From an uncultured virus (IMG/VR IMGVR_UViG_3300008117_000046) (taxonomy: Duplodnaviria > Heunggongvirae > Uroviricota > Caudoviricetes), in the IMG/VR virus record IMGVR_UViG_3300008117_000046: a stretch of 64,000 nt of DNA. The stretch is one strand, 5' to 3'. The notes under the pieces are model-generated. The model was not told where the DNA came from and ran no database searches. It saw only the letters and a program-made list of their open reading frames with translations. This document shows, one piece after another, positions 20,697-51,925 of the stretch. The position numbers and the translations under genes were made by a program. Position 1 is the first letter of the stretch; each line of letters starts with the position of its first letter.

Positions 20697-21326
20697 ATGA
20701 AATTATCTCCAGTTATATTTGAGTTCCAGGAATTATTCAGCTCGTGGCGATACTACCTGTATATCACACCGCCGCGTTCTCTTCGTGGGGTCACGCCTGG
20801 CACCAGTCAAAGAATACATCTCCAGTCGACTATACCCCTACGTTTATTGCTGGCCCCCTGCGAGCCAGAGTATATACCACTGGCCTATCCCCAGTACAGC
20901 ACACCGCGAGCCAGTGAGGCATTCAGGCTAGAGAATGCCTATAAGATAGAGATCTGGAGATGGAGGCAACAATCTAAGGTACCAGGGCGCGTAGTCCAGG
21001 ATTATCAGGAGTCATTAGTAGACACACGATACTGGTGGATAGGTATGTCTACCAGTCGCGAGCGTATAGAGATAACACCAGTAAACAATATAATTAGTTT
21101 ATTCGATTACCCCGATATACTAGCAGGCATCGTTGTTAAAGATGCACTGGGTGCTATTGTAGATTACACCGTCAAGGACCAGAGCACTAGCCGAGCAGAG
21201 CGCTTCAAGGCGGAGATAGAATTACCTAATAATGATCCCGTAGTAGTAGAATACGATACACCGGTAGTGCCGATAGAGGTCTCCTATACAGATAAGGTCA
21301 GTGAACAGTGGAATCGGATCTACTAA
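20697..21326 (+). CDS. Hypothetical protein
   Basis: 209-aa ORF overlapping the giant gene start. Confidence 0.6.
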   Translation: MKLSPVIFEFQELFSSWRYYLYITPPRSLRGVTPGTSQRIHLQSTIPLRLLLAPCEPEYIPLAYPQYSTPRASEAFRLENAYKIEIWRWRQQSKVPGRVVQDYQESLVDTRYWWIGMSTSRERIEITPVNNIISLFDYPDILAGIVVKDALGAIVDYTVKDQSTSRAERFKAEIELPNNDPVVVEYDTPVVPIEVSYTDKVSEQWNRIY

Positions 21327-24300: not shown

Positions 24301-27300
24301 TAGTCGCTTCCTAACCTCATCGTTCTTCCGCAATAAGGGTATTATAGGTGCCTCTGTATTGGCTCTTATGAATGTACAGACTGGCCTAGCTAATATACTA
24401 GATGCCAGTGGGCCTAGTTTCCTGCGTTCTATTAACCTACAGTTCGGTGATGTCGACGTAGAGGAGGTACGCTACAATAACCGCAATCTAATACTCGAAG
24501 GGCCCGTCATGGGGGCCGCTTATACAGCATTAGCAGTAGCCGGGGGTTATGTAGGTAGTGAGGTATTCGGCAGTATGGCTATTAACCGGTATAGTCTCAG
24601 CGATGAGTTGTATGCCAGTGGTAACAGTCGTCTAATATCCGCAGAGGCAGAAGGAGTACTGAAGCGAGGCACTCTAGTCAAGAAGGGTAATAGATTTATG
24701 ACGTGGGGTCTAACTACAGCAGCGCTACTATGGGCCCCCCGCGTCATCACTGGTGTAGGTAACTTTATAATGAATATCTTCAACCGTATAACAGGGCAAG
24801 AGGGGCAGGTACTAGACGAGAACTACGCAACAGTAGGTAGTCTCCAGGCATGGAAACAATCAGTACTCAATAGGGTCAATACAGGCGGGCTAGTTGGCAA
24901 TAGAACTGAGAGGACTTTAGAGGCATGGTCTGCATTCGTAGCAGGACGTATTAGTGCACACACACCAGTAGCAGCTATAAGTCAACGGGCCAAAACTATA
25001 GAGGTCTACGCGAGTCAGGCCCCCACGTCCTACATACAGTTCTTCATAGCGGAGTCACGGCGCCGTGGTTCTGAGATGGATAAGGGCGTATACAGTTATA
25101 GTATGGGGGTACAATCAGCACCTGTACTGGGTATCTCTATGAGCGTGTCAGCCCCGCTGGCCTTTGACGCTAATAAGCCCTTCGCTGAGGCCTTCATATA
25201 TAACCAGGAGAAGGATAACGTTATCAATTACATACAGAGCGCTGGTAATGTATCATTAGCAGTATCGTTAACGGCTGGGCTAGTTAGTCTGTCTGCTCTG
25301 TTACCAGAGTACGCGCGCTCTAAGATACTACGCGATCCTACGATAGGTGCGGGTGCGAAGGATCTCAGCAATAAGATGACTAACTTAGCAGCACTAGTAG
25401 ATGACTGGGGCGGCCGGGCTATGAATGTACCCATAGCAGGTGCACGAACTGCGGTTGGTTCCTTCTGGCATTACTCAGGTAAGGTAGTAGACACAATGGC
25501 GGGGTTCAGCTACGGGGCACTACAGGGATTCGACAAGCTAGATAGAAGACTAGCTAAGGTCATAGCTCTGAGTAACTTTATTGTACCCCCTGTGCTAGGC
25601 GCACTATTTGGACTAACGGGCACGAGTCCACTAACAAGTTCCCTACTTGTAGGTACCTCTCTGGCCTTCGCATATTCCTTCGCTATGAAGCACGATCCAT
25701 GGCGTAAGAAGGTAGCGGCTCTACAATCTCGTGTAGCGAGAATAACAGGTATGGAGGATATTAGGATAAGCCGCGGTATGCATACGGGTCTACGCAGATG
25801 GCGGGCCTATCGTATGCCACTACTTCTTGGCACTATAGCGGCCCTATTCCAAACTAAGACTGGGTGGAACGTAAGTGAGGGCATGGACGACAATGTCATG
25901 ACTCGACTAGCTACAGTAGGGCTCTATGCCGGCGTAAACGCTATGGCAGTAGTGGAACTAGGAGACCTCGGGCTAGACCCAGGCGCTACTATAGAGCGGT
26001 ATCGTAGAATGAGGGCCAAGGTAGGTAAGATGCACCCACTGAACCCACTAGGTATGTGGCGTAAGCTACGTCTAGCTTCTCTTGAGAGAGACATACGGTC
26101 TGACTTTAATACTGTAGAGACCTACCTATCAGACTACCGTAATAATCGACGGGGCTACCATAGCTTCGATTTACTAGATGAACACCTGAAGACAGTTCAC
26201 GGCACAGCATACCATAATGCTATGAATGAACACGGCCGGCGCCCGTCTAACTTCCAGGTACGGGACATTATAGACGAGGCAGGTAACTATAGACTAACAG
26301 ATTACAGTGAGAACCTACGCACCCTAGTAGATAGCCGAGACTACCTCAAGTATAGAAACGCCAGAATACTGGGGCCCGGCGGTAGTAGACTATTGCGTTC
26401 TGCAGCGGCACTAGGCGCCGTGAACATAGCCGCTACTGCTCTTCTATTAGGTGTGGGTGCTATATTATCTAGTTCAGGTAATCAGGAGGAAGCAACAGCG
26501 GGCTTCTATAACGCTATGGATGACACGCCACTGGAGTTCGTGTCTAATGCATTCCGTCTAGTCACACGACGGGATATAGCTGTGGCACAGGATCCCCTGG
26601 AGCCTCTGGTTGTAATGGCAGATGGCGCCTATAAGCGTAAGCGCGGCGTGCGCTTAATCAACCCCATAGAGAGCAGCGTAGGGCGTATGAGTACTGCAAT
26701 AGATAACCTACGCAACAGCTTTGTATTAAATGCCAGTAACCCATTTATGAGTGTCCTAGTATTTGGTACTAGTGTACGAGAGGGAGAGCTAGGCTCGCGT
26801 CAGACCTTCTACATGCAGCTACAGTCTACTAACCAGGACATCAGTACGGCAGTATATTCTACAGCGCCAGCCTATATGTTCAAGATGGTCAAGGCAGGGG
26901 CCATGGGCCAGCTATACGCGCGCGACTACCGTAAGGCTAATATAACTGATGCCTCGATGAATAACTTATCAGAGGATCAGCGCAAGTTTATGGCCATCAG
27001 CGTAGTCAGTCTAACAGCACGATTAGACCCATTGACTGATAAGAACCGCCGGCGCGTAACTAGCCCATTCAATAGAGCCAGCCTGGCCCTCTATAGAGCG
27101 GATCCGTTGATGAACATAGCGTTGAGTAGTCGCCTGCAGGTAATACGCAACTTCGCATATCAGCGGCCTGAGTCATTAGTATCTGAGATGACTAATCTAG
27201 GTAATCCTGATGGTATGAATCCCCGGGATAGTAAAAAACCCAAGTCATATCTAGACACGCTAATTGCATCGCTGAGTAAGGGAGACATGCGACTGTTAGC

Positions 27301-33742: not shown

Positions 33743-33940
33743 TTAATTGAATTGAAACAACCAGGGATTCCAAGTTAGTTCAGTATTATCATCTAACGTG
33801 ACAACCACTTTGTTCTTATGATTAACGTAGGGGTTACCCTTCGTGTTATAACTATAACCCGCTGACTTAGGATACGTTGATTGATATGCTATATTAGTAA
33901 CTACTTTATTATTAATCTCATCACCTAGCTTGATGTGCAT
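33743..33940 (-). CDS. Hypothetical protein
   Basis: 65-aa ORF overlapping the end of the radical SAM gene. Confidence 0.55.
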   Translation of the reverse strand: MHIKLGDEINNKVVTNIAYQSTYPKSAGYSYNTKGNPYVNHKNKVVVTLDDNTELTWNPWLFQFN

Positions 33941-34842
33941 GAGAAGCCTGCCTGGAAGTAATCGATTAGTGAAGTAGAGTCGAATGACGTGCGGTTATAA
34001 CTACGACTAGTAGGAGCATACTGCTGCTTAACCGCATCAATATACATAGTGAACTGGAAGTCATCGCCCATATAGAAGCGGGCCCACCCCTCATCAGTGA
34101 ATAAACGTCTGAGCTCTAACTGTTCGATAGCCAGGTTATCAAAGGAGAGATTACACCTGCCTATAAGAAAGGGTAGAGAACGCCGCCACTGCGCTATGCC
34201 TGCATCTACCTCAGGGCTATGATAATCTATACCGAAGCCGAAGTTCTTATAGCCTAGTACGAGTACCTTACTGGTTGCAGCACTGAGATTAACCAACTCA
34301 TCGATTATACTAACGGGATGGATACCAGCGATTATGTGATACACGATGTTATCTGAGAGACGCAGTACTGATATCAGACTGCTATAGTTACTACTAGTAA
34401 TTGAGATGCCGAGGCCCCGCACTAACTCCCGGCTTACGATATCCTCTATTAGAGTATCGTAGCGATGTAGATGACCTTGGTTAACAGTAATGTTAGCTAT
34501 AAGCCCGCGGGCCTTAAGTTCTACTAGGTAATCCACTATATTAGGATGAGATAGTGGGTTACCACCTCCGTTTGCTAACTCGACCCCAGCAGGTATATCA
34601 CTAAGGACATCGAGTAACCGTGTTAGGTCAGCGTGTTTACCATTACGAGTAGAACTCTCATGACAATATTTACATCCCATATCACAGTAGTCAGTGATCT
34701 TAATATCTATAGAGCAGGGATAGGCGGGGCGGGCCCCAACCACACTTGTAGTACGAACCAGGGTACCATCAGCATATAGAGTACACTCATAGTCACCATT
34801 GGTATAATGCGCTAAAGTTGTCGTTTCATTAAACTTATTCAT
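33925..34842 (-). CDS. Radical SAM protein
   Basis: CDMGCKYCHE (CxxxCxxC), GGGNP, ANITVN. Confidence 0.9.
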   Translation of the reverse strand: MNKFNETTTLAHYTNGDYECTLYADGTLVRTTSVVGARPAYPCSIDIKITDYCDMGCKYCHESSTRNGKHADLTRLLDVLSDIPAGVELANGGGNPLSHPNIVDYLVELKARGLIANITVNQGHLHRYDTLIEDIVSRELVRGLGISITSSNYSSLISVLRLSDNIVYHIIAGIHPVSIIDELVNLSAATSKVLVLGYKNFGFGIDYHSPEVDAGIAQWRRSLPFLIGRCNLSFDNLAIEQLELRRLFTDEGWARFYMGDDFQFTMYIDAVKQQYAPTSRSYNRTSFDSTSLIDYFQAGFSCTSS

Positions 34843-35947: not shown

Positions 35948-36749
35948 CTATCGTTTATCTGCGGCGAAGGCGCGTTGTGTTAGCTTAGCCATATCCCTAA
36001 TAGCATCCCATCCTGCCTCACCATATTGAGATACAGCATATTGCTCAACAGCGAGTAGTATATCAGCTAACTCGCACTGCCTCAATAACGAATTAGTGGC
36101 CTCGCGACACTCGAGCAACTCCTCGTATATCTTATCCAGCGTATTAACAAAATATTTAGGGATAGGACTAGAGTGATAGCCCGGCTGGAAGGAGTCATTA
36201 ACTGCTATACTAAAGCGGGGCTCAGCTATACCAGTGCCATAGTACCACCAGTGGTCCTCATAAGAGCGCTTACCATAAGAACCCAGCTCTAGATTCAATG
36301 GGGTATAAATTATATCTGTCTCATTGTCACAACGCACAAACTTGAGATTATGTGGATTAATGTAATGTAGCATCCACTGGTATGCATCACGACAGATAGT
36401 ATCTTCAGTCATACCAGGCATACCCTTATACACGAATAACTCTAGTTTCATGAAGTAAGGGCGGCTATAATCATCATTATCCAGTGGACGAAAGCACGGC
36501 GTAATAGCTTGCAGTGCGTCACCTGCCTGATAATGTCCATTTATCGCATTATAGATGAAGGTCTGTTCTGCGCTACCTACCAGCACAAAAGAGTCGTAAC
36601 AGCTATAGGAGGCCTGACTGTTAGGCTCTGGTGAGGTTATAGAGCCGATATCGCGAGGGCACGACCCATTTTAGATCGACTATTCTATAGCCCTTCTGTT
36701 TATAGTACTCCTGCGCTTCTACTAAATAGCGGTAATTAATAGTAAACAT
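35948..36749 (-). pseudogene. Class II aaRS-like ligase domain fused to a MazG-like helical domain, with one frameshift
   Basis: ATG at 36749 (MFTINYRYLVEAQEYY..KWVVP) joins LVGSAEQ, TPCFR, FMKLEL, ELGSYG and GTGIAEPR if one base is removed at 36657-36659; C-terminal EELLEC...ELADIL. Confidence 0.6.
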
Positions 36750-37095: not shown

Positions 37096-37585
37096 TAAAT
37101 AATCTCCTGTTAATATCAGATGATAGGAAGGCCTCTAACCAGACAGGGCGGGGCTCTATAAGATAACAGGCCCGCGCTGCGATAAGAGGATGATAGAAGT
37201 AAGGTAAAAACTCTAGCTGAGCTAGTGCCTCTATATGATGAGGCGTAGCTATACCTCTATGATCTAGTATACCCAGGGTAGGGTAGCGCTCGTGATATAT
37301 ATTTAGGTTATAGTTGTGCAGATACTCAGTAGTATCTAGACAGTACCAGGCAGCGCCAGAGCGGGGCCGCTCCATATCAGATAGGTAGCCTGTTATAATC
37401 GGCGGGCCCTCACTATCCTCACATAGATACTCTATGGCACGTCTATACATACGCCACTCCTGGGCCCAACTCGACTGTAGTGTTATAGTAACAGCACTAT
37501 AGCGGCCATCAGCGTAACGCCCTACATAATAGGGGTATATCATACAATCGCGAGCTGGTATACTCACGTGATAATTAGTCATCAC
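37085..37585 (-). CDS. Hypothetical protein
   Basis: 166-aa ORF overlapping the primase stop. Confidence 0.6.
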   Translation of the reverse strand: MMTNYHVSIPARDCMIYPYYVGRYADGRYSAVTITLQSSWAQEWRMYRRAIEYLCEDSEGPPIITGYLSDMERPRSGAAWYCLDTTEYLHNYNLNIYHERYPTLGILDHRGIATPHHIEALAQLEFLPYFYHPLIAARACYLIEPRPVWLEAFLSSDINRRLFNVC

Positions 37586-38775
37586 GATCCAAATAGTAGA
37601 GAGGCATATTCAAGGGGCCCTAATTGATTATCTACATAAGGAGCCAGTAGCCCTAAGGGGGAATGAGTGGCAGTTAATACCCGCAATATATCTACGTGAT
37701 GACTAATGTCGGGCCCCCATTGAGCTAGTAAATCATCTACGAATAGTATGCGGTTAGCATTAATAGTATCAGCAGCATTAACGCGAGGCTCTGCTACCAA
37801 CCACTCATTAATATCCTTATAATCAGCAACCATATACGTCATAAGCTCAGCTAATGGTAAGTTAATCTGCAGCTGAACTAGTTGAGGTATGATACGCACC
37901 CAGCTCTTATATACGCCAGCATGAGTAGGATGATCATCGCTATACTTATCTGAGTCGAATATAAATGTGATATGACGGAAGGGCTTGAATTTACTGGTGT
38001 GACATAATAGATACTCCAGACCCAATAACCCCACTACAGGTAAACCACGACCTACTAGTGATGTGGCATCAGGCGGGCCCTCAACTATATATAGCTCGCG
38101 AGCTGGGTGCTTACTATACTCCTTAAGACAATGTTCTAGATAGAGATAGCGCTTACTATTAATAGCGGCCCGCGTATCCTTATAACGGGGGGCCCTCTCA
38201 CTACTACCTATATAGCGACCAACCATATGGACTAGATGACCTCGTGTATCTCGTATAGGGAATATAATGCGTTCCCTATAGTAATCCTCGCCGTCCTCCT
38301 TAATCAGACCCTCGCGGGCTAATGCCTCATGATCTATATCGAATTGACGTAGACCACCAGGAGGAGCATACCCTATACCAATACTACGAGCTAGATCGAG
38401 AGACCAGCCCCGCCGTAGTATATAATCCTGAGCAGCAGGCGTAGTATCAAGATAATAGTGATAGGCCTCTAGCGCGCTCTCTAGTACTATACTGCGAGCA
38501 TCCATAACCTCGCGGGCCTGACGTATACCGGCGCGGGCCTCTAACTGTTGCATAGCCCCAGCATAATCAAGCTTAGTATGCCAACGCCAGGCATTAACCA
38601 GGCCCATACCTGCGTTCAACTCACAACTAGTCCTCCAGCACTTCATATAGTGCGGATATACACTCAGCTTACCGCGGCCCCCACAAGCAGGACAATCATT
38701 AGTACCATGCCGTAGATTTAGTAGCTCTGGTATAGTTAGCCGCTCCATTATCAGTTGTTCATTCTCTCTCGTCAC
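37582..38775 (-). CDS. DnaG-type DNA primase
   Basis: Zn finger CPAC...CWRTSC, IGYAP, RIIFPIRD, GRY...PRYKD, TOPRIM IVEGPPD and FDSD, KDINE. Confidence 0.9.
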   Translation of the reverse strand: MTRENEQLIMERLTIPELLNLRHGTNDCPACGGRGKLSVYPHYMKCWRTSCELNAGMGLVNAWRWHTKLDYAGAMQQLEARAGIRQAREVMDARSIVLESALEAYHYYLDTTPAAQDYILRRGWSLDLARSIGIGYAPPGGLRQFDIDHEALAREGLIKEDGEDYYRERIIFPIRDTRGHLVHMVGRYIGSSERAPRYKDTRAAINSKRYLYLEHCLKEYSKHPARELYIVEGPPDATSLVGRGLPVVGLLGLEYLLCHTSKFKPFRHITFIFDSDKYSDDHPTHAGVYKSWVRIIPQLVQLQINLPLAELMTYMVADYKDINEWLVAEPRVNAADTINANRILFVDDLLAQWGPDISHHVDILRVLTATHSPLGLLAPYVDNQLGPLEYASLLFGS

Positions 38776-41700
38776 CGCTCTCCGTATATTGTATGAATGC
38801 CCTATAATAACTAAGCTTGAACTTAAACATTAATACATATTGCCTGTTAATGGCAAGATGCTCGAGATAAGTGATGTCACTTACCCGTAGCCCATTCCAT
38901 AAGAATATCTCGGTCAACATACCTCACCCACGTCATCCATACTTCCGTTCTTAAGGGATACCTTCGACATGGTTCAGGCCATATATTTATATCTCGTCTA
39001 TCGCGCCACATATCGCCCTCTAATATAAATTGCATACTTCCAGTCTGTAATAAAACAAAGCAAGTTCGAAAGAATTACAATCATAAAACTTACGCATTAA
39101 GTGATATACCTCAATGGGGGGTTCAGGCATAAACATAGAGGCCTTCAGCTTATTGTGCAGAGTCCAATCGTTATGATTAATAGTATTCATTCAAACAAAC
39201 CTTTATGATTCAATCTAGAGTAAAACGAACCGACATGATTCCTGCTCATTAAATAAGAGCGGGTTACTAAGTAATTTGCAGGCTCAATAAGTATAAAGGC
39301 CTTAAGCTTATTGTGTAGAGACCAATCATTAATCATAATCATCTTCATTGAAATCATCTTCATTGAAATAACCGCCCTTATGTATAATGTCATCCTTACT
39401 CATTCTCATCTAAAATGTGTTAGACAATTCACTTACCAGTCTATAGTAAAACTGGTCGACAGAGGTAATAAGTATAGAGGCCTTCAGCTTATTGTGCAGA
39501 ATCCAAATATTACAATTTAGTCTTCATCGAAATAATTGTATAGCAGTCTATAGTAAAATTGATCTATAAAAGTAATAAGTATAGAGGCCTTGAGCTTATT
39601 GTCGATAGTCCAGTCGTAAAGCGAACCCAATTTGAAATAATCATTATTACACAGAACCCAATTATTATATAAAATCCAATAAGTAGAAATTCTCTTCATC
39701 AAAACAAACCCTTATGATTCAATCTAGAGTAAAACGAACCGACCTTATTAAATAAGACCAGGTTACTAAGTAATTTGCCCCAACGAAAGACTCAATAAGC
39801 ATAGAGGCTTTTTATTATTTGTCTCAGTGGAAGGTTCAGTAATAAGTATAGAAGCTTTAAGCTTATTGTGTAGAGTCCAATCACACAAACTCTTATGACC
39901 CAATCTAGAATAAAACAAACCGACATAGTACCTGCTCATTAAATAAGACCAGATACCATAATTTGCCTTAACGGAAGGCTCAATAAGCATAAAGGCCTCA
40001 AAGGTCCAATCATTAATCATAATCATCTTCATCGAAATAACCGTCCTCATTTAGAATAATAAACCAATAAAACCGGGTTACTAAATAATTTGCCCCAACG
40101 GAAAACTCAAGCATAGGGGCCTTAATAAGCTTATTGTGCAGAGACCAATCATTAATCATCTTCATCGAAATAATCATCTTTATATAGAATGTCGTATATC
40201 GCAGCTCTTAGTCTATAGTAAAACCCGCCGGTAGAGATAATAAGTGTACGGGCCTTTAACTTATTGTTGAGAGTCCAGTCGTAAAACAAAGCAAGTTTAA
40301 AAACTTTACAATTAACCATCTTCATAAAATGCAACTCTTATGATTCAATCTAGAGTAAAACGAACCGACATAATACCTGCCCATTAAATAAGACTCGGTT
40401 ACTAAGTAATTTGCCCCAACGGAAAACTCAATAAGCATAGAGGCCTCAAGCTTATTGTGCAGAGACCAATAATCATTAATCATCTTCATCGAAATAACCG
40501 TCCTCATATTCATCAAATTGGCCATCCTCAAGATAATAACCGCCCTCATCTAGAATATCATCTTTATCTAGGATGTTTTCTAACATATTTATCAATCTAC
40601 AGTAAAACCGGAAGATAGAGCCGCAACACTTGCTTAGTTTAGGAGTATAAATCTCGAAACCCATCTCTTCATAATAATGAAACAAGCGCAAGGCATTGAG
40701 ATAATCATTATTCAAAATCCAAGGTAACAGACAATCGTTAGAAACATTCTTCATTGAAATAACCGTCCTTATATAAAATATCATTCTTATTCATCCTCAT
40801 CTAGAATGTTATGTATAACACACTTACCAGTCTATAATAAAACTGGTCGACAGAGATAATAAGTATAGAGGTCTTCAACTTATTGTGCAGAGTCCGAAAG
40901 TAATTTGCCCCAACGGAAGGCTCAATAAGCATAGAAGCTCTAAGCTTATTGTTTAGAGTCCACCCTTCACATATAATCATCTTCACTAGAATAACCGTCC
41001 TTATGTATAAAGTAATCCTTATTCATTCTCATCTAGAATGTGTTAGACAGTCTATAGTAAAACAGGTCTACAGAGGTAATAAGTATAAAGGCCTTCAGCT
41101 TATTGTGCATAATAAAGGCAAATTTGAAAGATTTATAGCTTACTAAATCATTTATCTCAGCGAAAGACTCAGTAGTAAGTATAAGGTTATTATGTGTAAT
41201 CCAATATTTAGAGATAGTGTTCATTAAAGTAATCATCCTCATTTAGAATATCACTCTCATCTAGAGCGTTATATATAAAAGCCACTAGTCTATAGTAAAG
41301 CCGGTTGATAGAGCACTTGCTTAATTCAGGAATATGACTCTCGAGGCCCACATCCTCATAATAATAAAACAAGTAATTAAGCTTGTTACAACTAATTGCT
41401 CTCATTGAAGTAATCGCCCCCCATTCAGAAAGCCATATATCCCAAATTCTCCCATTCTATAATAAAACCAGGCGAGTCCCCCAGGACTATAAGCAAAATA
41501 CAATTTACCTAATAATACCTGTAGGTCAACAGACGGATCAGTAATAGGTATAGGTATATTTAACCTATTACGTGGGGCCCATTTGCTACAATTAATTATC
41601 TTCATCGAAATAATCATCCTCATCTAGAATGTTATATAACACATCTCCTAATCTATGATAAAATACGTTGATAGGAACATGTAACTTGTTCAATTCAGGG

Positions 41701-44700
41701 ATATAGACCTCGATACCCATGTTTTCATAGTAGTAACGATAAGACCATAGATGGTATTTTCTATTACGAGGAGCCCAATTATTACAACTAATCATCTTCA
41801 TCGAAATAATCGTCCTTATCTAGAGCGCTATATAATCTAGAGTAGAACGAACGGACGTAGAACCTGCTTATTAAATAAAACCTAGGTACTAAGCCGGTTG
41901 TTCTAACGGAAGGCTCAATAAGCATAGAGGCTCTAAGCTTATTGTGTAGAGTCAACTCATCACATATAATAGTCTTCATAAAAACATACTCCTACCCAGT
42001 CTGAAGTAAAACAAAGATGTCGAAGCAGACACCCCCACCCAAAAAATACTGTAATGCGTAGCGAGGTTGAAATAATTATGATTATAATACTTTCTTACAT
42101 TTATATCAGTGGAAGGCTCTCTACTAGATATAGATACCCTAAGTTTGTTATTAAGCATAGGCCAATAACTAATCATCTTCATCGAAATAATTATCCTCAT
42201 ATAGAATGTCGTATATCGTAGCTTTTAGTCTATAGTAAAACCCGCCGGTAGATAATAACTTTAGCTTATTCTTGGGAGTCCAGTCGTAAAACAAAGCAAG
42301 TTTGAAAACGTTACAATTAATCATCTTTATAGAATATATACTTATTTACTATGTCACATACCAGTCTATAATAAAATCGGTCGACAGCATAAAACCTTAA
42401 TTCAGGAGTATAGGTATCGATATCCATACGCTCACAATAATAAAAGAAGTAATTAAGCTTGTTATAACTAATTGCCCTCATTGAGGTAACCGCCCCCCAT
42501 AAAGGCCATATAACCCAAATCCTCCCAGCCTATAATAAAACCAGGCGAGTCTCCCAGGACTACAAGCAAAATACAATTTACCTAATAATCCTTGTAGGTC
42601 AACAGACGGATCAGTAATAGGTATAGGTATATTCAAGTTATTACGTGGGGCCCAATTGTTACAATTAATCATCTTCATTAAAGTAATTGTCCTCATATAG
42701 AATGCTATACAACACTACTCCCGCTAGTCTATGGTAAAACCTGGCAGGCCCCCCAGCGTTATAAGTATGAAAGTTATAGTTATAGAAACTGTAGTATAAA
42801 CTATCACTGTCTACTAAAATCGACGGGTCAGTGATATATGTATTTAGTTTACTACGTGAAGGCCAACCATTAATCATCTTCATCGAAATATAACAATCTA
42901 TGGTAAAATCAAACAGTCCCTCCTCTAGAATCATCAAGATAGAAGTTATAGAATAACTTATTATCTGCTATCAGAGGGTTAGTAATGGGTACAGGTGCAT
43001 TCCATGCATACGAAACCCATTCAATATCACGCGGAGCCCAACCGTTAGAATTAATTATCTTCATAGAAATAATGATAGGTTACGGTAAACGCAAGCGACT
43101 CCTCCGGCACTATAAGTGTGAAATTTATAGTATAAATAATTACGGTTTGCTATCAACGGGTTGGTAATAGGTACAGGTATATCCCGTATATGCGCAGCCC
43201 TTCTATTACGAGAGGCCCAATTGTTACAATTAATCATCTTCATCGAAATAATCATCCTCATTCAAAGGTAACACTACTGCTCCTGCCAGTCTATAATAAA
43301 ACATAGTGAGCCCCCAATAAACTCTAATAGGCATAGATATATTCAACTTATGACGTGGGACCCATTTGTTACTACCAACTATCTTCATAGAAATCGTCCT
43401 TAGCGAACAGTGTCAGTCTATAATAAAATAACATGATAGAAGTTTTGTAGTGGTAACGATAAAAGCTATAGTATAAACTATCACTGTTTGCTAAAACCGA
43501 CGGGTCAGCAGCAAGTATATTCAACTCATTACGTAAAGGCCAATTGTTAATAATCTTCATCGAAATATAACAATCTATAGTAAAACCAAGCAGGCCCTCC
43601 ACCATGATAAAGATAGAAGTTATAGAATAACTTATTATTATCTGCTACTGGAGGAACAATAATAGGTACAGGTGCATTCCATTCATACGGAGCCCATTTA
43701 ATAGTACGCGGAGCCCAATCATTACAATCAATCATCTTCATAGAAATAATCCCCCTCCCCTAGAAAGTCATATAACAAACATGCTAGTTTATAATAAAAC
43801 AAGTCGATAGGAACATGTAACTTGTCTAATTCAGGGATATAGGCCCCGAGACCCATGCTTTCATAGTAGTAACGATAGAACCATAGATAGTATAGATTAT
43901 CACCATTTGGTAAAATCGGTGGGTCAGTAATAGGTATCGGTATACTCAACTTATTACGTGCAGTCCAACAATCGTTATTACTATGAGGCGCCCAATTGTT
44001 ACAATTAATCATCTTCATAGAAGTAATAATAGGTTGTAGTTATCTTCATCTAGAAAGCTATACAACACTACTCCTACTAGTCTATTGTAAAATTTGGCGG
44101 GCCCTCCATCATGATAAAAATAGAAGTTATAGAATAACTTATTATCTGCTATTGGAGGGACAGCAGTAGGTACATATGCCCCCCATCCAGACGGAGCCCA
44201 TTTAATATTACGCAGAGCCCAATTATTACAATTAATCTTCTTCATAAAAATAATGATAGGTTATATTACGGTAAACGCAAGCGACTCCTCCGGCACTATA
44301 AGTGTGAAAGTTATAGTATAAATAATTATGGTTTACTATTAACGGGTTAGTAATAGGTATGGGTGCGGCCTCTTCATACGGAACCGGCTTATTACGAGGA
44401 GCCCAATCGTTACAATTAATCTTCTTCATAGAAGTAATATTCTGCCCCTGTCAGTATATAATAAAACATATCAAGCCCCCCAGTATCATTATAAACATAA
44501 AAACTATCGTATAAATTATCAATGCTCATTAGAGGCGGATTAGTGGTAGGTATGTATGGAGTCCACGCATAACGAGGAGCCCAATTGTTAGAATTAATCT
44601 TCTTCATCGAAATAAGTGTCCTCATATAGAATGTTGTATAGCACACTGAAATAACCACCCTCATTTAGAATGTTATATAACATATATGACAGTCTATGAT

Positions 44701-46120
44701 AAAACCAGACGAGTCTCTCAGGATTATAAGCAAAAAAGCATAATCCCTGTAGGCCAACAGGCGGGTTAGTAATAGGTATAAGTATACTCGACTGATTACG
44801 TGGGGCCCAATTGTTAGAATTAATCTTCTTCATCGAAATAATTGTCCTTATATAGAATATATAATACTATTCCCGACAGTCTATAGTAAAATATAGCAAG
44901 TCCTCTAGAATTATAAAGATAGAAGCTATAGTATAAATTATTGATATTTGCTACTGGCGGGGCAGTGATAGGTATAGGTGCAATCCATTCACTACACGGG
45001 GCCCAGCAATTTGGATTAATTGTTTTCATAGAGATAGTTATCCTCAGCTAAAATATCAATATCCTGTCTGTAGTAAAACGCCTTGAAATAAAAGAAGTTG
45101 ATAGAGACATATAACTTGTGTAATTCAAGGGTATAGGCCCCATATATACTTATCTGCCATGTGTATACACAGTCTATAGTAAAATCGGTCGACAGCATAA
45201 AACCTTAATTCAGGAGTATAGGTATCGAGACCCTCAACAAAATAAAAAAAGTAATTAAGCCTGTTACATCTAATCGCTCTCATTGAAGTAATCACCCCCC
45301 AAGCTTAAGGTCTCATTCAGAAAGTGATATATCACAAATTCTCCCAGTCTATAATAAAACCAGGCGAGTCTTCCAGGACTATAAGCAAAATACAATTTGC
45401 CTAATAACCCCTGTAGGTCAATAGGCGGGTCAGTAATAGGTATAGGTATATTCAAGTGATTACGTGGGGCCCAGTCATTACAATTAATTATCTTCATCGA
45501 AATAATCATCCTCACCTAAAATATCAATATACCAGTCTATGTTAAAGAGCGCTGATAAAAACGCAGGTTATAATAAAACAAGTCGATAGAAAAATATAAC
45601 TTGTCTAATTCAAGAGTATAGGCCCCAATTATAATTTCATAGAACCATGTATAATATAAATTATCGCCGTTTGCTAGAATCGCTGGGTCAGTAATGGATT
45701 TAGATATAGACATATGTGGACCCCAATTACTACTAAGCCAACCATTACAATTAATAATCTTCATAGAGATAATCATCCTCATCTAATGATAGTTTACGGT
45801 AAAACCAAGCAAGCCCTTGATTATTATAAGTATGAAACTTATAGTATAAATTATGACCACTTGTTATCAGAGGATCAGTAATAGGTACAAGTTCACCCCA
45901 ATATGGAGCCCATCTAGTATTACGAGGAGCCCAATCATTAGAATTAATAATCTTCATCGAAATAGTCCCCCTCATCTAGAATGTTATATAATACATTTCC
46001 TGCCAGTCTATAGTAAAACTTGGCGGGCCCCCCAGCATTAACGTAGTAGTAGACCCATTCGCGATACGGCGCCCATTTCTCATTATGGGGCGCCCAACAG
46101 TTTGTATTAATCTCTTTCAT
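38759..46120 (-). repeat. Tandem array of about 35 paralogous mini-ORFs (about 200-bp units) joined by a conserved junction repeat
   Basis: Recurrent + strand motif aatcatcttcatcgaaataatc near 39340, 39520, 40020, 40155, 40480, 41595, 41790, 42170, 42670, 42870, 43230, 43550, 43730, 44010, 44235, 44420, 44600, 44820, 45485, 45750, 45945 and others. Units encode MKxI(N)..W..(R/H)N..P..(F/Y)YxRL..DEDDYFDEDD. Confidence 0.9.
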
Positions 46121-46523
46121 CAAATGCCTCCTTTTTTACTGGACGTAAAACCGACTTTTTCTTATAAGCAACCACCATTAAATACACCTCTAACAAAGCC
46201 TCAATAAGAGACTCCTGCCGAGAACCAAAACAGCGTGAAGTCTTGGAAGGATCAGGATTCACGCTGACCTGCACAGTATAACTATTAGGTAATCGTTGGA
46301 TGACCCAACCATAGCCAAAGCTATCTAGACGCATTTGGAAAAAATAGATCAACTTAGCAAGCGACCCCCGATCTAACAAAAAGGGATCAGGATCAGAGGT
46401 AGAGATAGAAATCCAATCACCCCAAGATAGTTGGATAAAAAAGGTATTCCGAAAAGTACCCACTCCATACCCACAAATGTGAGGCTCAGACTTGACCCAA
46501 TCGTGCAAAAATTCAGTAAGCAT
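46107..46523 (-). CDS. Hypothetical protein leading the mini-gene array
   Basis: 138 aa, SD GGAGG; its end (FDERD*) overlaps the first array ORF (MKEINTNCWAP, ATG at 46120). Confidence 0.65.
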   Translation of the reverse strand: MLTEFLHDWVKSEPHICGYGVGTFRNTFFIQLSWGDWISISTSDPDPFLLDRGSLAKLIYFFQMRLDSFGYGWVIQRLPNSYTVQVSVNPDPSKTSRCFGSRQESLIEALLEVYLMVVAYKKKSVLRPVKKEAFDERD

Positions 46524-47055: not shown

Positions 47056-47090
47056 AAAAATAGCCCCCCTGCACTTTGGCAGGGGGGCTA
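47056..47090 (-). terminator. Intrinsic terminator
   Basis: Hairpin tagcccccctgc-actttg-gcaggggggcta next to A5 (U tract on the - strand). Confidence 0.8.
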
Positions 47091-47125
47091 CTAATAATAG
47101 ATGAAAGGTTTTACCTCACAGTAGT

Positions 47126-47410
47126 TCACCCATTGTTATCAAATAGGTTTCTATAGGCCTGGTATACGGCATCAGGTGCCTCCTCGTCATTGTATTGTTG
47201 AGCCAACTTGTATATAGATAAGAAGCTCAATAGATTAGGGCGGTAGTTAGGGATAATACAATAACCACCCTTAATCCATTTAACACACGCGAGACGGCGA
47301 GTACCATAAAACCAGCAGAAGATCTCGTCGCCAAGAGTCGTACGAGATTGATATGGTTCGCGAAAGTCAGATATACGCCCCCGCAAGTATCTAAGTAAAT
47401 CGAACATCAT
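47126..47410 (-). CDS. Hypothetical protein
   Basis: 94-aa ORF with ATGA overlap with the helicase stop. Confidence 0.55.
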   Translation of the reverse strand: MMFDLLRYLRGRISDFREPYQSRTTLGDEIFCWFYGTRRLACVKWIKGGYCIIPNYRPNLLSFLSIYKLAQQYNDEEAPDAVYQAYRNLFDNNG

Positions 47411-48585
47411 AATTTAGTACCTAACTGATTATAGAATTTAAGGATAGAAGGCTCTATATAGCAACTATCACAGAAGGTAGATCGTGTACCTATCAGGCGG
47501 AGGCCGCTATAATGACGTACACGACTAAGAATAGTATAGAGGCCCCCGCTGAGCCAACGTAAATTACTGAGACGAGCCTGTACGTTATTAAGCGTAAGCC
47601 CCTGACTACGATGAACAGTGAGGGCGTAGCCCAGTCTAACGGGTAAGTAGTGGCAGCGGCCCAGTAGCTTGTTAGTGCCGAGCTCTTTATTATCTCGTGT
47701 TACGTATTCAATGATAGTCTCCTGACCGGTACGTTCTACTGTCACCAGTATAGTGTTAGTCATGAGCTCCTTGACTATAGCGATATCGCCATTAGCATAC
47801 GCAGGTAGTCTGTTACGAAGTAGAATAACGCGCGCGCCCTTCCTCAGCTCTACTGATTCGGGTATTTGGCTCCACTCAGGAGCGGCCCTACACCCCTTCG
47901 GTATAACGTAGTTCTTAGTGTAGAGGCGACTAGGCCCTTCTAGTTGTGCTAAGTGCACGGCGTTATATCTATCTACACTATCATTAGTAGTCAGGATAGT
48001 AGTGCCCGCGTAGTTATCATCGATCTGATTGACAAACTCTACATTATCCATGAACCAATCTACTGCTTCCTGAGGCCGCCCTTCTCTTACGCTAGTCAGT
48101 GCCTGTATAAAGCCGGGGTCACTCTGGCGCCTGACCTCTCGTAAGTACTGTATATCGAAGCTCTGCAGGCAGTCTGTTTGATAGACTGGCGTGCTAGTGA
48201 CCTTCTTATCTGGTACTAGTGGTAACTGACAGAAGTCCCCCACGAGTAGGAGATTCATATTTATGTTACTCTTCTCCATTACGTGATGGATAATAGTTAG
48301 TTGCGGGCCATGTAACATACTGATCTCGTCTATGACTAGGGTATCGAAAAGATTAGATATAGCCCGTAGCTTAGTGGCCAGCGCTCCACTGGAAGCAGCG
48401 CGTAATAGGCTAGTAGTGTCGAAAAACTGGAGGGCCGCGTGAACAGTAGTACCGCCTGCATTAATAGCGCTCACGCCGGTACTACTAGTGATGAGGGCCT
48501 TACTCAAACTCTGTATGTATGTTGTTTTACCACTCCCTGCTGGACCCAGCAGCATCTGATAGGGGCCGTTGAACGTTATCTGCAT
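47407..48585 (-). CDS. Pif1/RecD-like SF1B helicase
   Basis: GPAGSGKT, STGVSA, DEISM, GDFCQLP, RRQSD and YALTVHRSQGLTL. Confidence 0.9.
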   Translation of the reverse strand: MQITFNGPYQMLLGPAGSGKTTYIQSLSKALITSSTGVSAINAGGTTVHAALQFFDTTSLLRAASSGALATKLRAISNLFDTLVIDEISMLHGPQLTIIHHVMEKSNINMNLLLVGDFCQLPLVPDKKVTSTPVYQTDCLQSFDIQYLREVRRQSDPGFIQALTSVREGRPQEAVDWFMDNVEFVNQIDDNYAGTTILTTNDSVDRYNAVHLAQLEGPSRLYTKNYVIPKGCRAAPEWSQIPESVELRKGARVILLRNRLPAYANGDIAIVKELMTNTILVTVERTGQETIIEYVTRDNKELGTNKLLGRCHYLPVRLGYALTVHRSQGLTLNNVQARLSNLRWLSGGLYTILSRVRHYSGLRLIGTRSTFCDSCYIEPSILKFYNQLGTKL

Positions 48586-49553: not shown

Positions 49554-49570
49554 AAGTAGTCATGCAAGGA

Positions 49571-49599
49571 TTGACAATTTTAGAAGTCTCTGATAAAAT
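49571..49599 (+). promoter_or_regulatory. Sigma70-type promoter for the tRNA-like RNA
   Basis: TTGACA, 17-nt spacer, TAAAAT, with extended -10 TG. Confidence 0.8.
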
Positions 49600-49605
49600 T
49601 GAAAT

Positions 49606-49803
49606 GCTAGAGTAGCTTGGTAGCTAAAGGCTGAAACGGAGCCTTCAACCGAAAAGGGACTTAATACAAAAAATACCTTTGTTTTTTGTTTCAAAACTGA
49701 AATTTGCGAATCCACCGAACTTGGCAAAGATTGAGTGAGGGAAGGGCGTTTCGTCAGGAGTAGATTTAATTAAGTTTTGCGGGTTCAATTCCCGTCTCTA
49801 GTA
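49606..49803 (+). ncRNA. tRNA-like RNA with an expanded variable region of about 130 nt
   Basis: Acceptor GCTAGAG/CTCTAGT plus A; mini D arm GCT-TGGT-AGC; stem-loop AAGGCT-GAAACGG-AGCCTT; T arm GCGGG-TTCAATT-CCCGT. Confidence 0.65.
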
Positions 49804-49844
49804 CCTATTAAATTATGCCACCAGTCACGAGTTAATAAATTCAT

Positions 49845-50117
49845 TTAATACTCATTGAGTCGCATTTTTAGATTCTTCAGTTTTTCAAGTTTTCTTTCAG
49901 TTTGTTTAATTGCTTTAAGTCTCTTTTCTTCAAAGACTTTTTGAGCTTCTGTTTCCGTTAGCACATACTCTTTTGAGGTAAATCCGTCTAGCATTAACAT
50001 ATTAAATTTACGGGGATTATCCGGGGAAAATACCCCATGGCAGATTTTTCCATTGCACTTTATAATGCCACTTGTCAAAGCGTATTTTGTGACATAAACT
50101 GTAATTGTTTCGTCCAT
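49845..50117 (-). CDS. Hypothetical phage protein
   Basis: VYVTKYALTSGI motif; SD AGGAG. Confidence 0.7.
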   Translation of the reverse strand: MDETITVYVTKYALTSGIIKCNGKICHGVFSPDNPRKFNMLMLDGFTSKEYVLTETEAQKVFEEKRLKAIKQTERKLEKLKNLKMRLNEY

Positions 50118-50146
50118 TGATTTACTCCTATGGTTATTATTTTTAG

Positions 50147-50228
50147 TGGGTTAGGCTGGGTTTGCACCAGCGTGGAATTACTCTACAGATTTACAGTCTG
50201 TCGCCTTCGACTACTCGGCCACTAACCC
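50147..50228 (-). tRNA. tRNA-Tyr(GTA)
   Basis: Acceptor GGGTTAG/CTAACCC, anticodon arm ACAGA-CTGTAAA-TCTGT, long variable arm, T arm GCTGG-TGCAAAC-CCAGC; CCA not encoded. Confidence 0.9.
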
Positions 50229-50240
50229 TTGTTTAGATTT

Positions 50241-50269
50241 ATCTTACCATAATTCTTAATGCCTGTCAA
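50241..50269 (-). promoter_or_regulatory. Sigma70-type promoter for tRNA-Tyr
   Basis: TTGACA, 17-nt spacer, TAAGAT on the - strand. Confidence 0.75.
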
Positions 50270-50731
50270 TCATGGTTTTTGATTTTCTTGATTCTTTTGA
50301 GATTCTTGCAAATTGAGAAGTTGAAGCACAGCTTCATCTGCGTCTTTACGCGCCATACTACAAGTCCATAGTCTTTGTTCATTGCGCTTAATAATGATAA
50401 TTTCTGTATCAGAAACTGAACAAACTAAATCATTTTTCTGTTTTATTAGTTGATTAAGAGATTCTATTCGTTGCTTTTGTTCTAATTCAGAAACGGGTTG
50501 AGGTTTTTCTCCGTACTCTTGTGTAGAGAAAACAATAGCTAACATAAAACTTTTTGTTTCTTTAAACTGAAACCGAATAATCTGCCAACTAAATTCACCA
50601 TCAGGTTCTAATTCTCGATTCCAAATATTTAGAAAGGTCTGTAAATAACCTTCTAATCCTTTTTGAGTTTGACGGTTTTTATTAATATCACTGACTAAAA
50701 ATCCCGTATCTAACAGAATATTTGACTTCAT
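50270..50731 (-). CDS. Protein resembling the C-terminal domain of cyanobacterial N6-MTase/type IIG R-M enzymes
   Basis: IIIIKRNEQRLWTCSMARKDA motif; no catalytic MTase motifs. Confidence 0.45.
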   Translation of the reverse strand: MKSNILLDTGFLVSDINKNRQTQKGLEGYLQTFLNIWNRELEPDGEFSWQIIRFQFKETKSFMLAIVFSTQEYGEKPQPVSELEQKQRIESLNQLIKQKNDLVCSVSDTEIIIIKRNEQRLWTCSMARKDADEAVLQLLNLQESQKNQENQKP

Positions 50732-50973
50732 TTGCTGCCAATACCTCGAAGATAGTCTTTATTAGTGGCTAAGTCCCCCGGTCCGCCATCGACACAACCA
50801 ATATATTCTTTGGCTGCTTCATAGAATGAAATCGTTTTTTCTTCAGTGAGTTCTTTCTTCTCTGCCTTAAATTGCAAGAATTTAATAAAGTCGATTACTT
50901 CTTGCTGTTGTTGGGGAGTGAGGGCGTTTAGTTTTTCTAAGATGGTTTGTGAGTGAGTGGTTGCTGATATCAT
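50728..50973 (-). CDS. DUF2281-like putative antitoxin
   Basis: ILEKLNALTPQQQQEVIDFIKFL and C-terminal GPGDLATNKDYLRG. Confidence 0.65.
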   Translation of the reverse strand: MISATTHSQTILEKLNALTPQQQQEVIDFIKFLQFKAEKKELTEEKTISFYEAAKEYIGCVDGGPGDLATNKDYLRGIGSK

Positions 50974-51104
50974 GGGTTAATTCTCTTGGGGGTTCTTCTG
51001 ACTGACTGTCTTGAATAGAGTAAGAGTAAGAATATCAAGGATTTAACAGTTCTACATAAAACATATTGTGACTCCGATTAATTTTACATATAAAGTTTTA
51101 ATGT

Positions 51105-51410
51105 TTATTCATTGCCAAGATACCATTGCTTATCACTAAGAAACCAGAAAAACATTCCTTTGCAAGAATTAGTACAGTCTTTCTCAGATATTAATTCTTG
51201 CCATAAACGAAAACATTCAAAAAATTGCTCCCATCCATAAGGAACATCTTCTTTAAGATTAGTCCAAATAATAGATAGATACCTTTCGATAAGATTGCGT
51301 ATTGTTAAGATTAAAGAGTGTGGTTTTATTCCCATCTCTTTTAGTTCTGCTTTGGTTAATTTCTTTCTTAGAAATTGATCGATCTTTTTATCTAGTTGCG
51401 TTTGATTCAT
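51105..51410 (-). CDS. Hypothetical protein
   Basis: 101-aa ORF starting 12 nt downstream of a CRISPR-like repeat. Confidence 0.55.
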   Translation of the reverse strand: MNQTQLDKKIDQFLRKKLTKAELKEMGIKPHSLILTIRNLIERYLSIIWTNLKEDVPYGWEQFFECFRLWQELISEKDCTNSCKGMFFWFLSDKQWYLGNE

Positions 51411-51422
51411 TGTTTAGTATCA

Positions 51423-51925
51423 GTTTCAATCCCTAATAAAGCTTAAACTTAATTGTTTCTTTTTCCTTAATATTTAATCTTCTCCCCAATCTGGGTAGTA
51501 TTGTAAATAGACAGCTTGTCGCTCGATAGCTTCCTTCTCAAGCTTTTCAATTTCTTCGTCATCGAAGTCGTGGTCCCAAATTAGAGAATCAAGAAACTGG
51601 TCTTCTTTCTCTATAAACAATTCCTTCTTAACCATAAAATCTTGGCAACCATAAGACATCCCTCCGCTTTTCCCTATAAAAATAAGCGCATTGTCTTCAA
51701 CGGTCGCCAAAAACTCTTTTAATTGTTTTGCAGTAATCACTTTGTGTCTCCTAAATAAAAAGTTATCTTATCAATATTCGGATTGGGAATCTACCATAAT
51801 TCAATCAGTTTCAATCTCTAGTAGGGTTTAAAACTAATACACAATAACACCTACTATTAACCAATTACGTTGAGTATGATAATGGTGAATCTCAAACCCT
51901 ACTAGGGATTGAGATTAATTCTAAC
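51423..51925 (-). CRISPR. Three degenerate type I-D-like repeats (51423-51459, 51808-51844, 51889-51925); no cas genes
   Basis: Each matches 28-29 of 37 nt by my manual alignment to the Microcystis repeat as I recall it (GTTCCAATTAATCTTAAACCCTATTAGGGATTGAAAC); all three in the same orientation. Confidence 0.65.
51474..51740 (-). CDS. Small acidic hypothetical protein between CRISPR-like repeats
   Basis: 88 aa, D/E-rich, SD AGGAG, GTG start. Confidence 0.65.
   Translation of the reverse strand: MITAKQLKEFLATVEDNALIFIGKSGGMSYGCQDFMVKKELFIEKEDQFLDSLIWDHDFDDEEIEKLEKEAIERQAVYLQYYPDWGED

Follow-up and report, generated by a model that had tools for sequence, protein, structure and literature searches.

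How should a run of some three dozen very small, related genes, lying one after another ahead of the DNA primase gene of a phage, be understood? The question is raised by the 64,000-nucleotide stretch of DNA analysed here (the window; IMG/VR record IMGVR_UViG_3300008117_000046, an uncultured virus), which comes from a relative of the Fukuivirus-type Microcystis phage Ma-LMM01. An initial annotation of the window described the run as a 7.4-kb array of about 35 paralogous, translationally coupled mini-genes and read it as a diversified repertoire of effector peptides. The tandem array of paralogous mini-genes is confirmed, and the overall interpretation is partly supported. With a probability of about 0.55, we favour the reading that the array is a lineage-specific tandem family of small coding genes, expressed with the middle class of phage genes, separated by reusable junctions and exchanging unit types between phages, whose products are putative host-directed binders.

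The array forms part of a minus-strand chain of 38 small open reading frames (ORFs) running from 46123 down to 38759. In an all-against-all blastp comparison (E ≤ 1e-3), 36 of these, U01-U36 (39020-46120), each have between 2 and 26 paralogues within the array, whereas for the ORFs at 38877-39035 and 38759-38920 there is no paralogue. The profile made from U01-U36 gives 38 domain hits, all on the minus strand between 39023 and 46135, with no match elsewhere in the window on either strand. The final ORF, 38759-38920, had been taken as a divergent last member; it does overlap the start of the primase, but its likeness to the family amounts to a six-column YYR match with an hhalign probability of 0.2% and no PHROG hit. 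As it is not a demonstrable member, the demonstrable array is 39020-46120, or 7.1 kb rather than 7.4 kb. The units, counted from the family-type start, are 50-96 residues long, with a mean start-to-start spacing of 198 bp (median 184 bp), and the GC content is 0.34-0.37 within the array compared with 0.44-0.47 in the adjoining kilobases. Tandem Repeats Finder reports short-period rows and no long-period array, the DNA sequences of the units having diverged too far for one to register.

No family had been recognised for the units, yet 21 of the 23 tested match phrog_4393 at E ≤ 0.01 (best 1.5e-27), U05 and U06 being those without a match; the 138-residue gene and the ORFs at 38877-39035 and 38759-38920 do not match it either. 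The array family is PHROG 4393, which is catalogued as of unknown function. A search for a characterised family by hidden Markov model (HMM), as suggested in the initial annotation, found a catalogued family, but no functional annotation: the members are 'hypothetical proteins' in all GenBank records of Ma-LMM01 and the MaMV phages, and the members of the database clusters are named 'hypothetical protein' only. NCBIfam gave nothing for two units, and the top feature scores in the ESM Atlas, 0.80, are at the level of shuffled proteins. Runs of PHROG 4393 genes of the same family, at the same locus and with the same style of junction, are present in Ma-LMM01 (gp137-gp157), MaMV-DC, MaMV-DH01, MaMV-DL01/02 and MaMV-CH01/02. 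The literature on paralogous, tandem or hypervariable genes of Ma-LMM01 yielded no description of the array, although the genome paper of Yoshida et al (2008) may describe the family. Wider searches retrieved 212 clusters among 5.8 billion proteins and 76 hits among 1.84 billion representatives; three long hits among the 76 (343-1162 residues) are unrelated repetitive proteins and were discarded as spurious. A scan of 185,579 species genomes with U04 as query gave nothing credible, a lone 26-residue match in an unrelated metagenome-assembled genome being taken as chance. The range of the family seems to be narrow, specific to the lineage of Fukuivirus-type Microcystis phages.

Loci of relatives were collected with the primase as query. 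At all 12 loci spanning the site, five from isolates and the other seven from viral contigs (two of these identical to the window), the array lies between the 138-residue gene and the primase, with 22-38 units over 4.0-8.4 kb, and the primase is 94-100% identical. The cultured isolates have 22-27 units over 4.0-5.5 kb, compared with 36 over 7.1 kb in the window. Unit order, the comparison of which had been proposed together with that of unit number, is partly kept among the arrays, for instance at the primase-proximal end. Ten arrays, two of them (L002 and L005) identical, contain 299 units, which fall into 181 types at 90% identity or more and 112 types at 80% or more. Over the 112 types, 54 occur in a single genome only and none is common to all ten, while just one of the 181 occurs twice in one genome. 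The window has 31 types at the 80% level, sharing only 2-3 with the PHROG 4393 runs of the isolates and 6-14 with metagenomic relatives. The closest relative of a unit lies in another genome for 34 of the 36 window units and for 258 of the 272 units across nine arrays, the median identity being 86% between arrays and 63% within an array. A within-array relative of at least 90% identity was found for none of the 36 window units and, among the nine arrays, in L011 only (four units). That the closest relatives are mostly in other genomes argues that the array is an old repertoire, kept and exchanged across the population, neither amplified recently in place nor homogenised by concerted evolution.

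The units share a consensus that opens with MKxINCNxWAPRN and a PIPITDP-like stretch, passes through a variable middle rich in Tyr to FYYRL, and closes with a short hydrophobic run, to which an acidic tail may be added. Tyrosine makes up 10.2% of unit residues as against 3.7% in reference phage proteins, with aromatics at 19%; the residues of AT-rich codons (FYIMNK) reach 41% compared with 25%. The median net charge is +2 over the first 20 residues and -3 over the last 12. The ratio of nonsynonymous to synonymous substitution rates (dN/dS), a check that had been called for, is 0.61 for whole units (241 close unit pairs). Among 623 non-redundant close pairs drawn from the 299 units, pairs that are not independent of one another, it is 0.37 at 37 scaffold columns and 0.79 in the core elsewhere, in line with the conserved scaffold and variable middle described previously. 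The units are accordingly genes with a few constrained anchors and a near-neutral, drifting middle, and selection on them is weak beside that on the primase and helicase (0.03-0.10).

Much of this could also be expected of a dosage array, in which all units do the same job, total product or copy number is what matters and diversity is neutral drift of the middle. The core dN/dS is near neutral with constraint limited to the short anchors, the excess of FYIMNK residues and the low GC are as expected of relaxed sequence, and copy number varies from 22 to 38 among close relatives. An array maintained for dosage is, however, unlikely given that recent in-place duplicates are missing at the 90% level from the window and almost so from the ten genomes, and that distinct types persist across genomes, more alike between arrays than within them. 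Large DNA viruses likewise have multigene families and 'genomic accordions' of variable copy number, among them the multigene families of African swine fever virus and the K3L amplification of poxviruses. These resemble the array in their tandem paralogues, a variable region, copy numbers that differ between close strains and a presumed role in host interaction. They consist, however, of larger genes with their own promoters and of recent, near-identical copies, whereas here units of about 65 residues are chained by overlapping stop/start cassettes and the window copies are old, none reaching 90% identity within the array.

Are the units genes at all? Frames open for 45 codons or more take up 96.8% of the array's minus strand; in 200 dinucleotide shuffles they average 35% and never exceed 50.7%. 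On the plus strand (39020-46123) antisense open frames cover 52.8%, slightly over the shuffle maximum; these frames carry the junction's reverse complement over and over and seem to be a by-product. Along the minus-strand frames Y129 is kept in 34 of 34 rows through TAC in 20 and TAT in 14, L132 is conserved through CTG, CTA, TTG and TTA, and P78 through four codons. Since residues of old paralogues are kept through synonymous changes, the units are protein-coding genes, and this codon-level evidence settles the matter.

It is quite improbable, by the same token, that the units have no protein function, the frames staying open only to provide ribosome cover for an AT-rich transcript or for primase expression, or the repeats acting as DNA in the form of a recombination or replication site. 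Such an explanation would account for the differences by codon position, 1551/1191/1370, which show no third-position excess, and for the dN/dS of 0.56 and 0.80 in the two shifted frames, values similar enough to that of the real frame that substitution patterns alone do not single out the coding frame; the same method applied to the flanks gives 0.03-0.10 with a clear third-position excess for the primase and helicase and 0.09-0.41 for small flanking genes. It would also fit an AT-rich array lying between helicase and primase in a chain that is unbroken into the primase start. Against it stand the amino-acid anchors kept through synonymous codons, the scaffold dN/dS, and the relatives, where an insertion sequence (IS) element (Ma-LMM01) or three other genes (the CH, DH and DL phages) separate array and primase, so that coupling to the primase is not required. 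A replication origin at the array was considered and rejected, the cumulative GC skew having no local turn there.

The tight stop/start overlaps noted previously between units are borne out and have a regular form. In all, 30 of the 36 units overlap the upstream ORF, by 14 nt in 18 units, 4 nt in seven and other lengths in five, the remaining six being preceded by gaps. The family-type ATG carries TGA at +2 (the ATGA form) and TAA at +12, and stops in all three frames fall inside the junction window at 24 of 35 junctions compared with 4.9 expected. A Shine-Dalgarno (SD)-like purine 4-mer precedes 23 of the 35 starts, 17 of them with the motif at exactly -15; the same motif precedes 24 of 158 other ATGs in the array and 5.6 of 35 random positions. 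The 138-residue gene ends in the same type of cassette, with a strong AAGGAGG, and the frameshifted tails of U11, U16, U19 and U25 still terminate at the junction cassette. The chain was also considered as one frameshifted polyprotein, a possibility rejected because every junction has its own start and stops in every frame.

The junction also bears on both ends of the protein. The overlap with the upstream stop dictates part of the conserved N-terminal motif, and the acidic tail (D-Y-F-D-E-D-D-stop) and the M-K-M-I-N of the next unit are the same bases in two frames. As an element of the scaffold, which is how the tail had been presented, it survives only in part: at least four Asp or Glu among the last ten residues are found in just 16 of the 36 units, and the tail is largely a by-product of the downstream unit's SD and start. 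Asp at the tail position ahead of the 14-nt overlap is encoded equally by GAT and GAC, which leaves room for some protein-level constraint. In ATGA-type overlaps a gene stops within, or immediately beyond, the start of the gene that follows it, and the two are translationally coupled. Seven junctions here are plain ATGA overlaps, for which coupling is putative; unlike such overlaps, however, the commonest form is 14 nt long and one cassette of SD-like motif, start and three-frame stops is reused about 30 times in a row.

Precursors of ribosomally synthesised and post-translationally modified peptides (RiPPs) occur in families with many paralogues, as in the prochlorosins and the cyanobactin E-peptides, and the array resembles these in its conserved, recognition-like ends, hypervariable middle and dozens of paralogues. 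It is nevertheless very unlikely that the units are RiPP precursors whose ends serve for recognition and whose core is modified by a nearby radical SAM protein or by host enzymes. The contrast between constrained ends and free middle is not specific to RiPPs, and the units, if rich in aromatics, have a conserved C-terminal part that is a predicted helix rather than a short follower sequence. A radical SAM gene does lie on the same strand, 4 kb downstream (33925-34842; PHROG 16999, 'Fe-S oxidoreductase'), conserved in all relatives, but the protein matches generic core models only, far below every NCBIfam cut-off, has no SPASM domain, and is separated from the array by the primase and four other genes. 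SPASM, YcaO and ATP-grasp_4 domains were found in none of the four complete Fukuivirus genomes, no cognate maturase domain being found, and among the 22 proteins searched against Pfam no unit reached the cut-off of any family, known precursor families included.

When the array is expressed can be judged from the transcriptome of Ma-LMM01 infection (PMC5780444), in which all 21 orthologous array genes, gp137-gp157, are listed in Table S3 in the 'middle' class B5 together with the primase and helicase. As tabulated there, gp137-gp157 have log2 fragments per kilobase per million (FPKM) of 7.55-9.82 at 3 h and 7.29-9.65 at 6 h (gp140, 9.04 and 9.30), and the primase and helicase values are 10.85/10.90 and 9.94/10.19, while the head and sheath genes rise from about 7-8 at 3 h to 13-14 at 6 h (PMC5780444). 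Because the array genes share class B5 with the primase and helicase of this relative, the array is probably co-expressed with the replication genes, as the initial annotation had proposed. In the window itself promoter-like sites are somewhat enriched in the array (62 compared with 41.9 ± 6.3 expected) and terminator-like sites are not (8 compared with 6.7). In four metatranscriptome runs from one study 76-91% of the array's sampled words are present. The RNA-library contigs are 3-4 times shallower over the array than over its flanks; such depth is no measure of expression, and repeats break contigs up.

The units might instead be packaged like the internal proteins of T4-type phages, the N-terminal motif targeting them to the head for injection with the DNA to blunt host defences. 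This would agree with small proteins that are variable apart from a conserved N-terminal motif of about 13 residues, and with a locus hypervariable between close relatives. It is hard to credit, however, when the overlap partly dictates that motif and when, in the relative's tabulated data, the array transcripts are flat from 3 to 6 h while those of the head and sheath genes climb by 5-6 log2 units (PMC5780444). No virion proteome for this phage group was found in the literature; the MaMV-DH01 paper states that mass spectrometry is still needed, and the passages of it that were searched do not describe the array.

Under the reading favoured here, of a lineage-specific family of small coding genes with host-directed products, the array would be transcribed with the middle, replication-gene block, as is seen in relatives and as is consistent with the window. 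A reusable junction cassette of about 45 nt, with its SD-like motif at -15, ATG and three-frame stops, delimits each unit, and because stops are present in all three frames an upstream unit in any frame ends 4 or 14 nt after the next start. The next unit would then be made by termination-reinitiation or from its own SD. The predicted products, of 50-96 residues, begin with the basic motif MKxINCNxW..N, continue through a stretch rich in Pro and a Tyr-rich middle that drifts, and keep a conserved FYYRL helix; under half of the units add an acidic tail, which is mostly the next unit's translation signals in another frame. Purifying selection acts on the anchors only, and unit types are gained, lost and exchanged, with breakpoints enriched at the junctions. 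It would seem likely that the proteins serve as abundant, dispensable small binders, acting through the anchor motifs on host components during the replication phase, with the likeliest targets in the host's highly variable repertoire of defence or toxin-antitoxin systems. To us, host interaction is the most plausible role.

A bolder version, which we regard as doubtful, is that each array is a sample of a recombination-shuffled, population-wide library of small binders, each type neutralising a different variant of the exceptionally diverse Microcystis defence or toxin-antitoxin systems, with the cassette allowing units to be swapped, frameshifted and rebuilt without silencing their neighbours. 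The basis for it is the number of types, more than 100 in ten arrays, and the 212 clusters in public data. If true, the array would be to the virus what an immune repertoire is to a host.

Several results weigh against the favoured reading. The whole-unit dN/dS of 0.61, the lack of third-position excess, the similar ratios in shifted frames and the mutual dependence of the pairs compared have been described; the core value of 0.79 is below 1, so that drift suffices and diversifying selection is not demonstrated. Of 27 ends of homology blocks of at least 90% identity, 13 lie no more than 30 nt from a junction, where 7.9 would be expected (p about 0.02), a modest enrichment that conservation of the junction may inflate. 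None of 27 units matches any PADLOC model at E ≤ 1, and the best E-value in a profile search of the PDB is 1.2. AlphaFold models from two alignments show an extended N-terminal part and a helix across the FYYRL region, but their confidence is low (predicted local distance difference test (pLDDT) 59 and 64, predicted template modelling (pTM) score 0.25), so that there is no fold to reason from; complex prediction with four copies of one unit scored 0.00, which is evidence neither way. Contigs of at least 99% identity from the four metatranscriptome runs cover the array, but carry no information on strand or level and may reflect carry-over of DNA. As to timing, the host-takeover role suggested in the initial annotation is not favoured, the array genes lying outside gp054-gp063, the early class of Ma-LMM01, to which its host-takeover genes belong (PMC5780444).

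Among cultured lytic viruses of toxic Microcystis blooms, phages of the Ma-LMM01 type are the main ones, and they give over about 4% of their genome to the array. No other locus varies as much between phages with near-identical replication genes, which makes the array a natural candidate for what sets strain-level host compatibility in blooms. The T4-type phages offer a parallel in their hyperplastic regions and in internal proteins that carry a short shared N-terminal motif on variable bodies, these also being small, fast-changing gene clusters that differ between collinear relatives. Unlike the array, the loci of T4-type phages are not known to have runs of 20-40 paralogues, and expression in Ma-LMM01, as far as tabulated, follows the replication rather than the head genes. 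The junction cassette is a tidy example of how dozens of indel-prone micro-genes can be kept separately translatable. The genes themselves have been in public records for years and the family is catalogued, the window being a larger instance.

The 36 units, all on the minus strand, are described here in 5' to 3' order. U01 (45944-46120, 58 residues) overlaps the 138-residue gene by 14 nt, as had been observed at the start of the array, with the strong AAGGAGG upstream. It is followed at 14-nt overlaps by U02 (45751-45957, 68 residues) and U03 (45537-45764, 75 residues), a mosaic with the head of one type and a YTLEL-type body. U04 (45270-45497, 75 residues), separated from U03 by a 39-nt gap, belongs to the best-conserved subtype, shared with U19 and U25. 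The MRAI-type U05 (45125-45283, 52 residues; 14-nt overlap) matches the HMM though not the PHROG, as does U06 (45016-45198, 60 residues; E 1e-7), which is atypical with a fragment-like N-terminus. U07 (44820-45029, 69 residues), one whose structure was predicted, U08 (44594-44833, 79 residues), U09 (44416-44607, 63 residues) and U10 (44232-44429, 65 residues) all have 14-nt overlaps. The frameshifted tail of U11 (44015-44245, 76 residues) has an LLLLL end and stops at the ATGA of U12 (43728-44018, 96 residues; 4-nt overlap), a composite of an A-type head and a YIPEL-type body.

U13 (43547-43741, 64 residues) and U14 (43372-43560, 62 residues) again overlap by 14 nt, and U15 (43230-43388, 52 residues) by 17 nt. 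The tail of U16 (43061-43243, 60 residues) is frameshifted relative to the U10 type, and U17 (42909-43064, 51 residues; 4-nt overlap) is truncated ahead of the FYYRL motif. After U18 (42665-42883, 72 residues) comes U19 (42478-42678, 66 residues), of the U04 subtype with a frameshifted tail, then the MRAI-type U20 (42317-42481, 54 residues; 4-nt overlap), the FKLALFYDW-type U21 (42169-42324, 51 residues), U22 (41976-42182, 68 residues; 14-nt overlap), the LHNKL/IEPS-type U23 (41788-41979, 63 residues; 4-nt overlap) and U24 (41592-41801, 69 residues; 14-nt overlap), with a composite of head and body. U25 (41402-41605, 67 residues) is once more of the U04 subtype with a frameshifted tail. An identical G+C-rich hairpin with a T-run is found inside the coding sequences of U19 (42541-42557) and U25 (41468-41484), at the codons of the conserved PG(R/G)LAWFYY stretch.

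U26 (41208-41405, 65 residues), of MRAI type, overlaps by 4 nt and is followed by U27 (41033-41242, 69 residues). U28 (40801-40986, 61 residues) has a GTG start and a 46-nt gap upstream, and U29 (40476-40754, 92 residues) has a long acidic tail. U30 (40322-40489, 55 residues), U31 (40152-40325, 57 residues) and U32 (40013-40165, 50 residues) overlap by 14, 4 and 14 nt, respectively. In U33 (39766-40032, 88 residues) two unit remnants are fused in a single frame. A 66-nt gap precedes U34 (39517-39699, 60 residues), and the 168-nt gap upstream of U35 (39187-39348, 53 residues) holds unit debris (HMM hit at 39413-39523). U36 (39020-39190, 56 residues) is the last demonstrable member, and its type ends seven of the ten arrays compared.

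In all relatives the array is headed by the 138-residue gene (46107-46523, minus strand), which has no family and whose last codons form the first junction; a RecD/PIF1-like helicase lies further upstream (47407-48585, minus strand) and the DnaG-type DNA primase downstream (37582-38775, minus strand). A 12.6-kb query around the array matched nine phage records, all from Microcystis phages or cyanophages, which cover 34-46% of the query at 90-92% identity, essentially in the flanks. The nearest record, a 78-kb uncultured viral contig, has all sampled words in common with the window and family matches at this one locus only. The interval between array and primase (38759-39035; 6824-8582 in L001 and 6905-8206 in L002) is a hot spot of insertion, occupied in Ma-LMM01 by two transposase genes, in the CH, DH and DL phages by the three other genes, and in the window by two small minus-strand ORFs outside the family. 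These are the 52-residue ORF at 38877-39035, which is in the chain but has neither PHROG match nor paralogue, and the 53-residue ORF at 38759-38920, which is 93% identical in DNA to MaMV-DC.

A second AT-rich island (49560-51900, GC 0.32-0.39) contains unrelated small minus-strand genes. Among them a DUF2281 antitoxin-like protein (50728-50973) abuts a 153-residue ORF without family (50270-50731), and the two may be a phage-borne toxin-antitoxin-like pair. The match to PHROG 4806 ('histidyl tRNA synthetase') at 35948-36586 is 639 nt long in the window compared with 801 nt in the isolates. At position 36656 one base is absent from the contigs of all four RNA-library runs, and the window may have a 1-nt indel, either genuine or introduced by the assembly. 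In the spacer between the 108-residue and 94-residue genes (47058-47096), 37 nt are skipped in contigs of three of the four runs, which looks like a deletion variant in the population. Finally, a single ORF of 2898 residues on the plus strand (21308-30004) lies just ahead of the switch in gene orientation, where the cumulative GC skew peaks.

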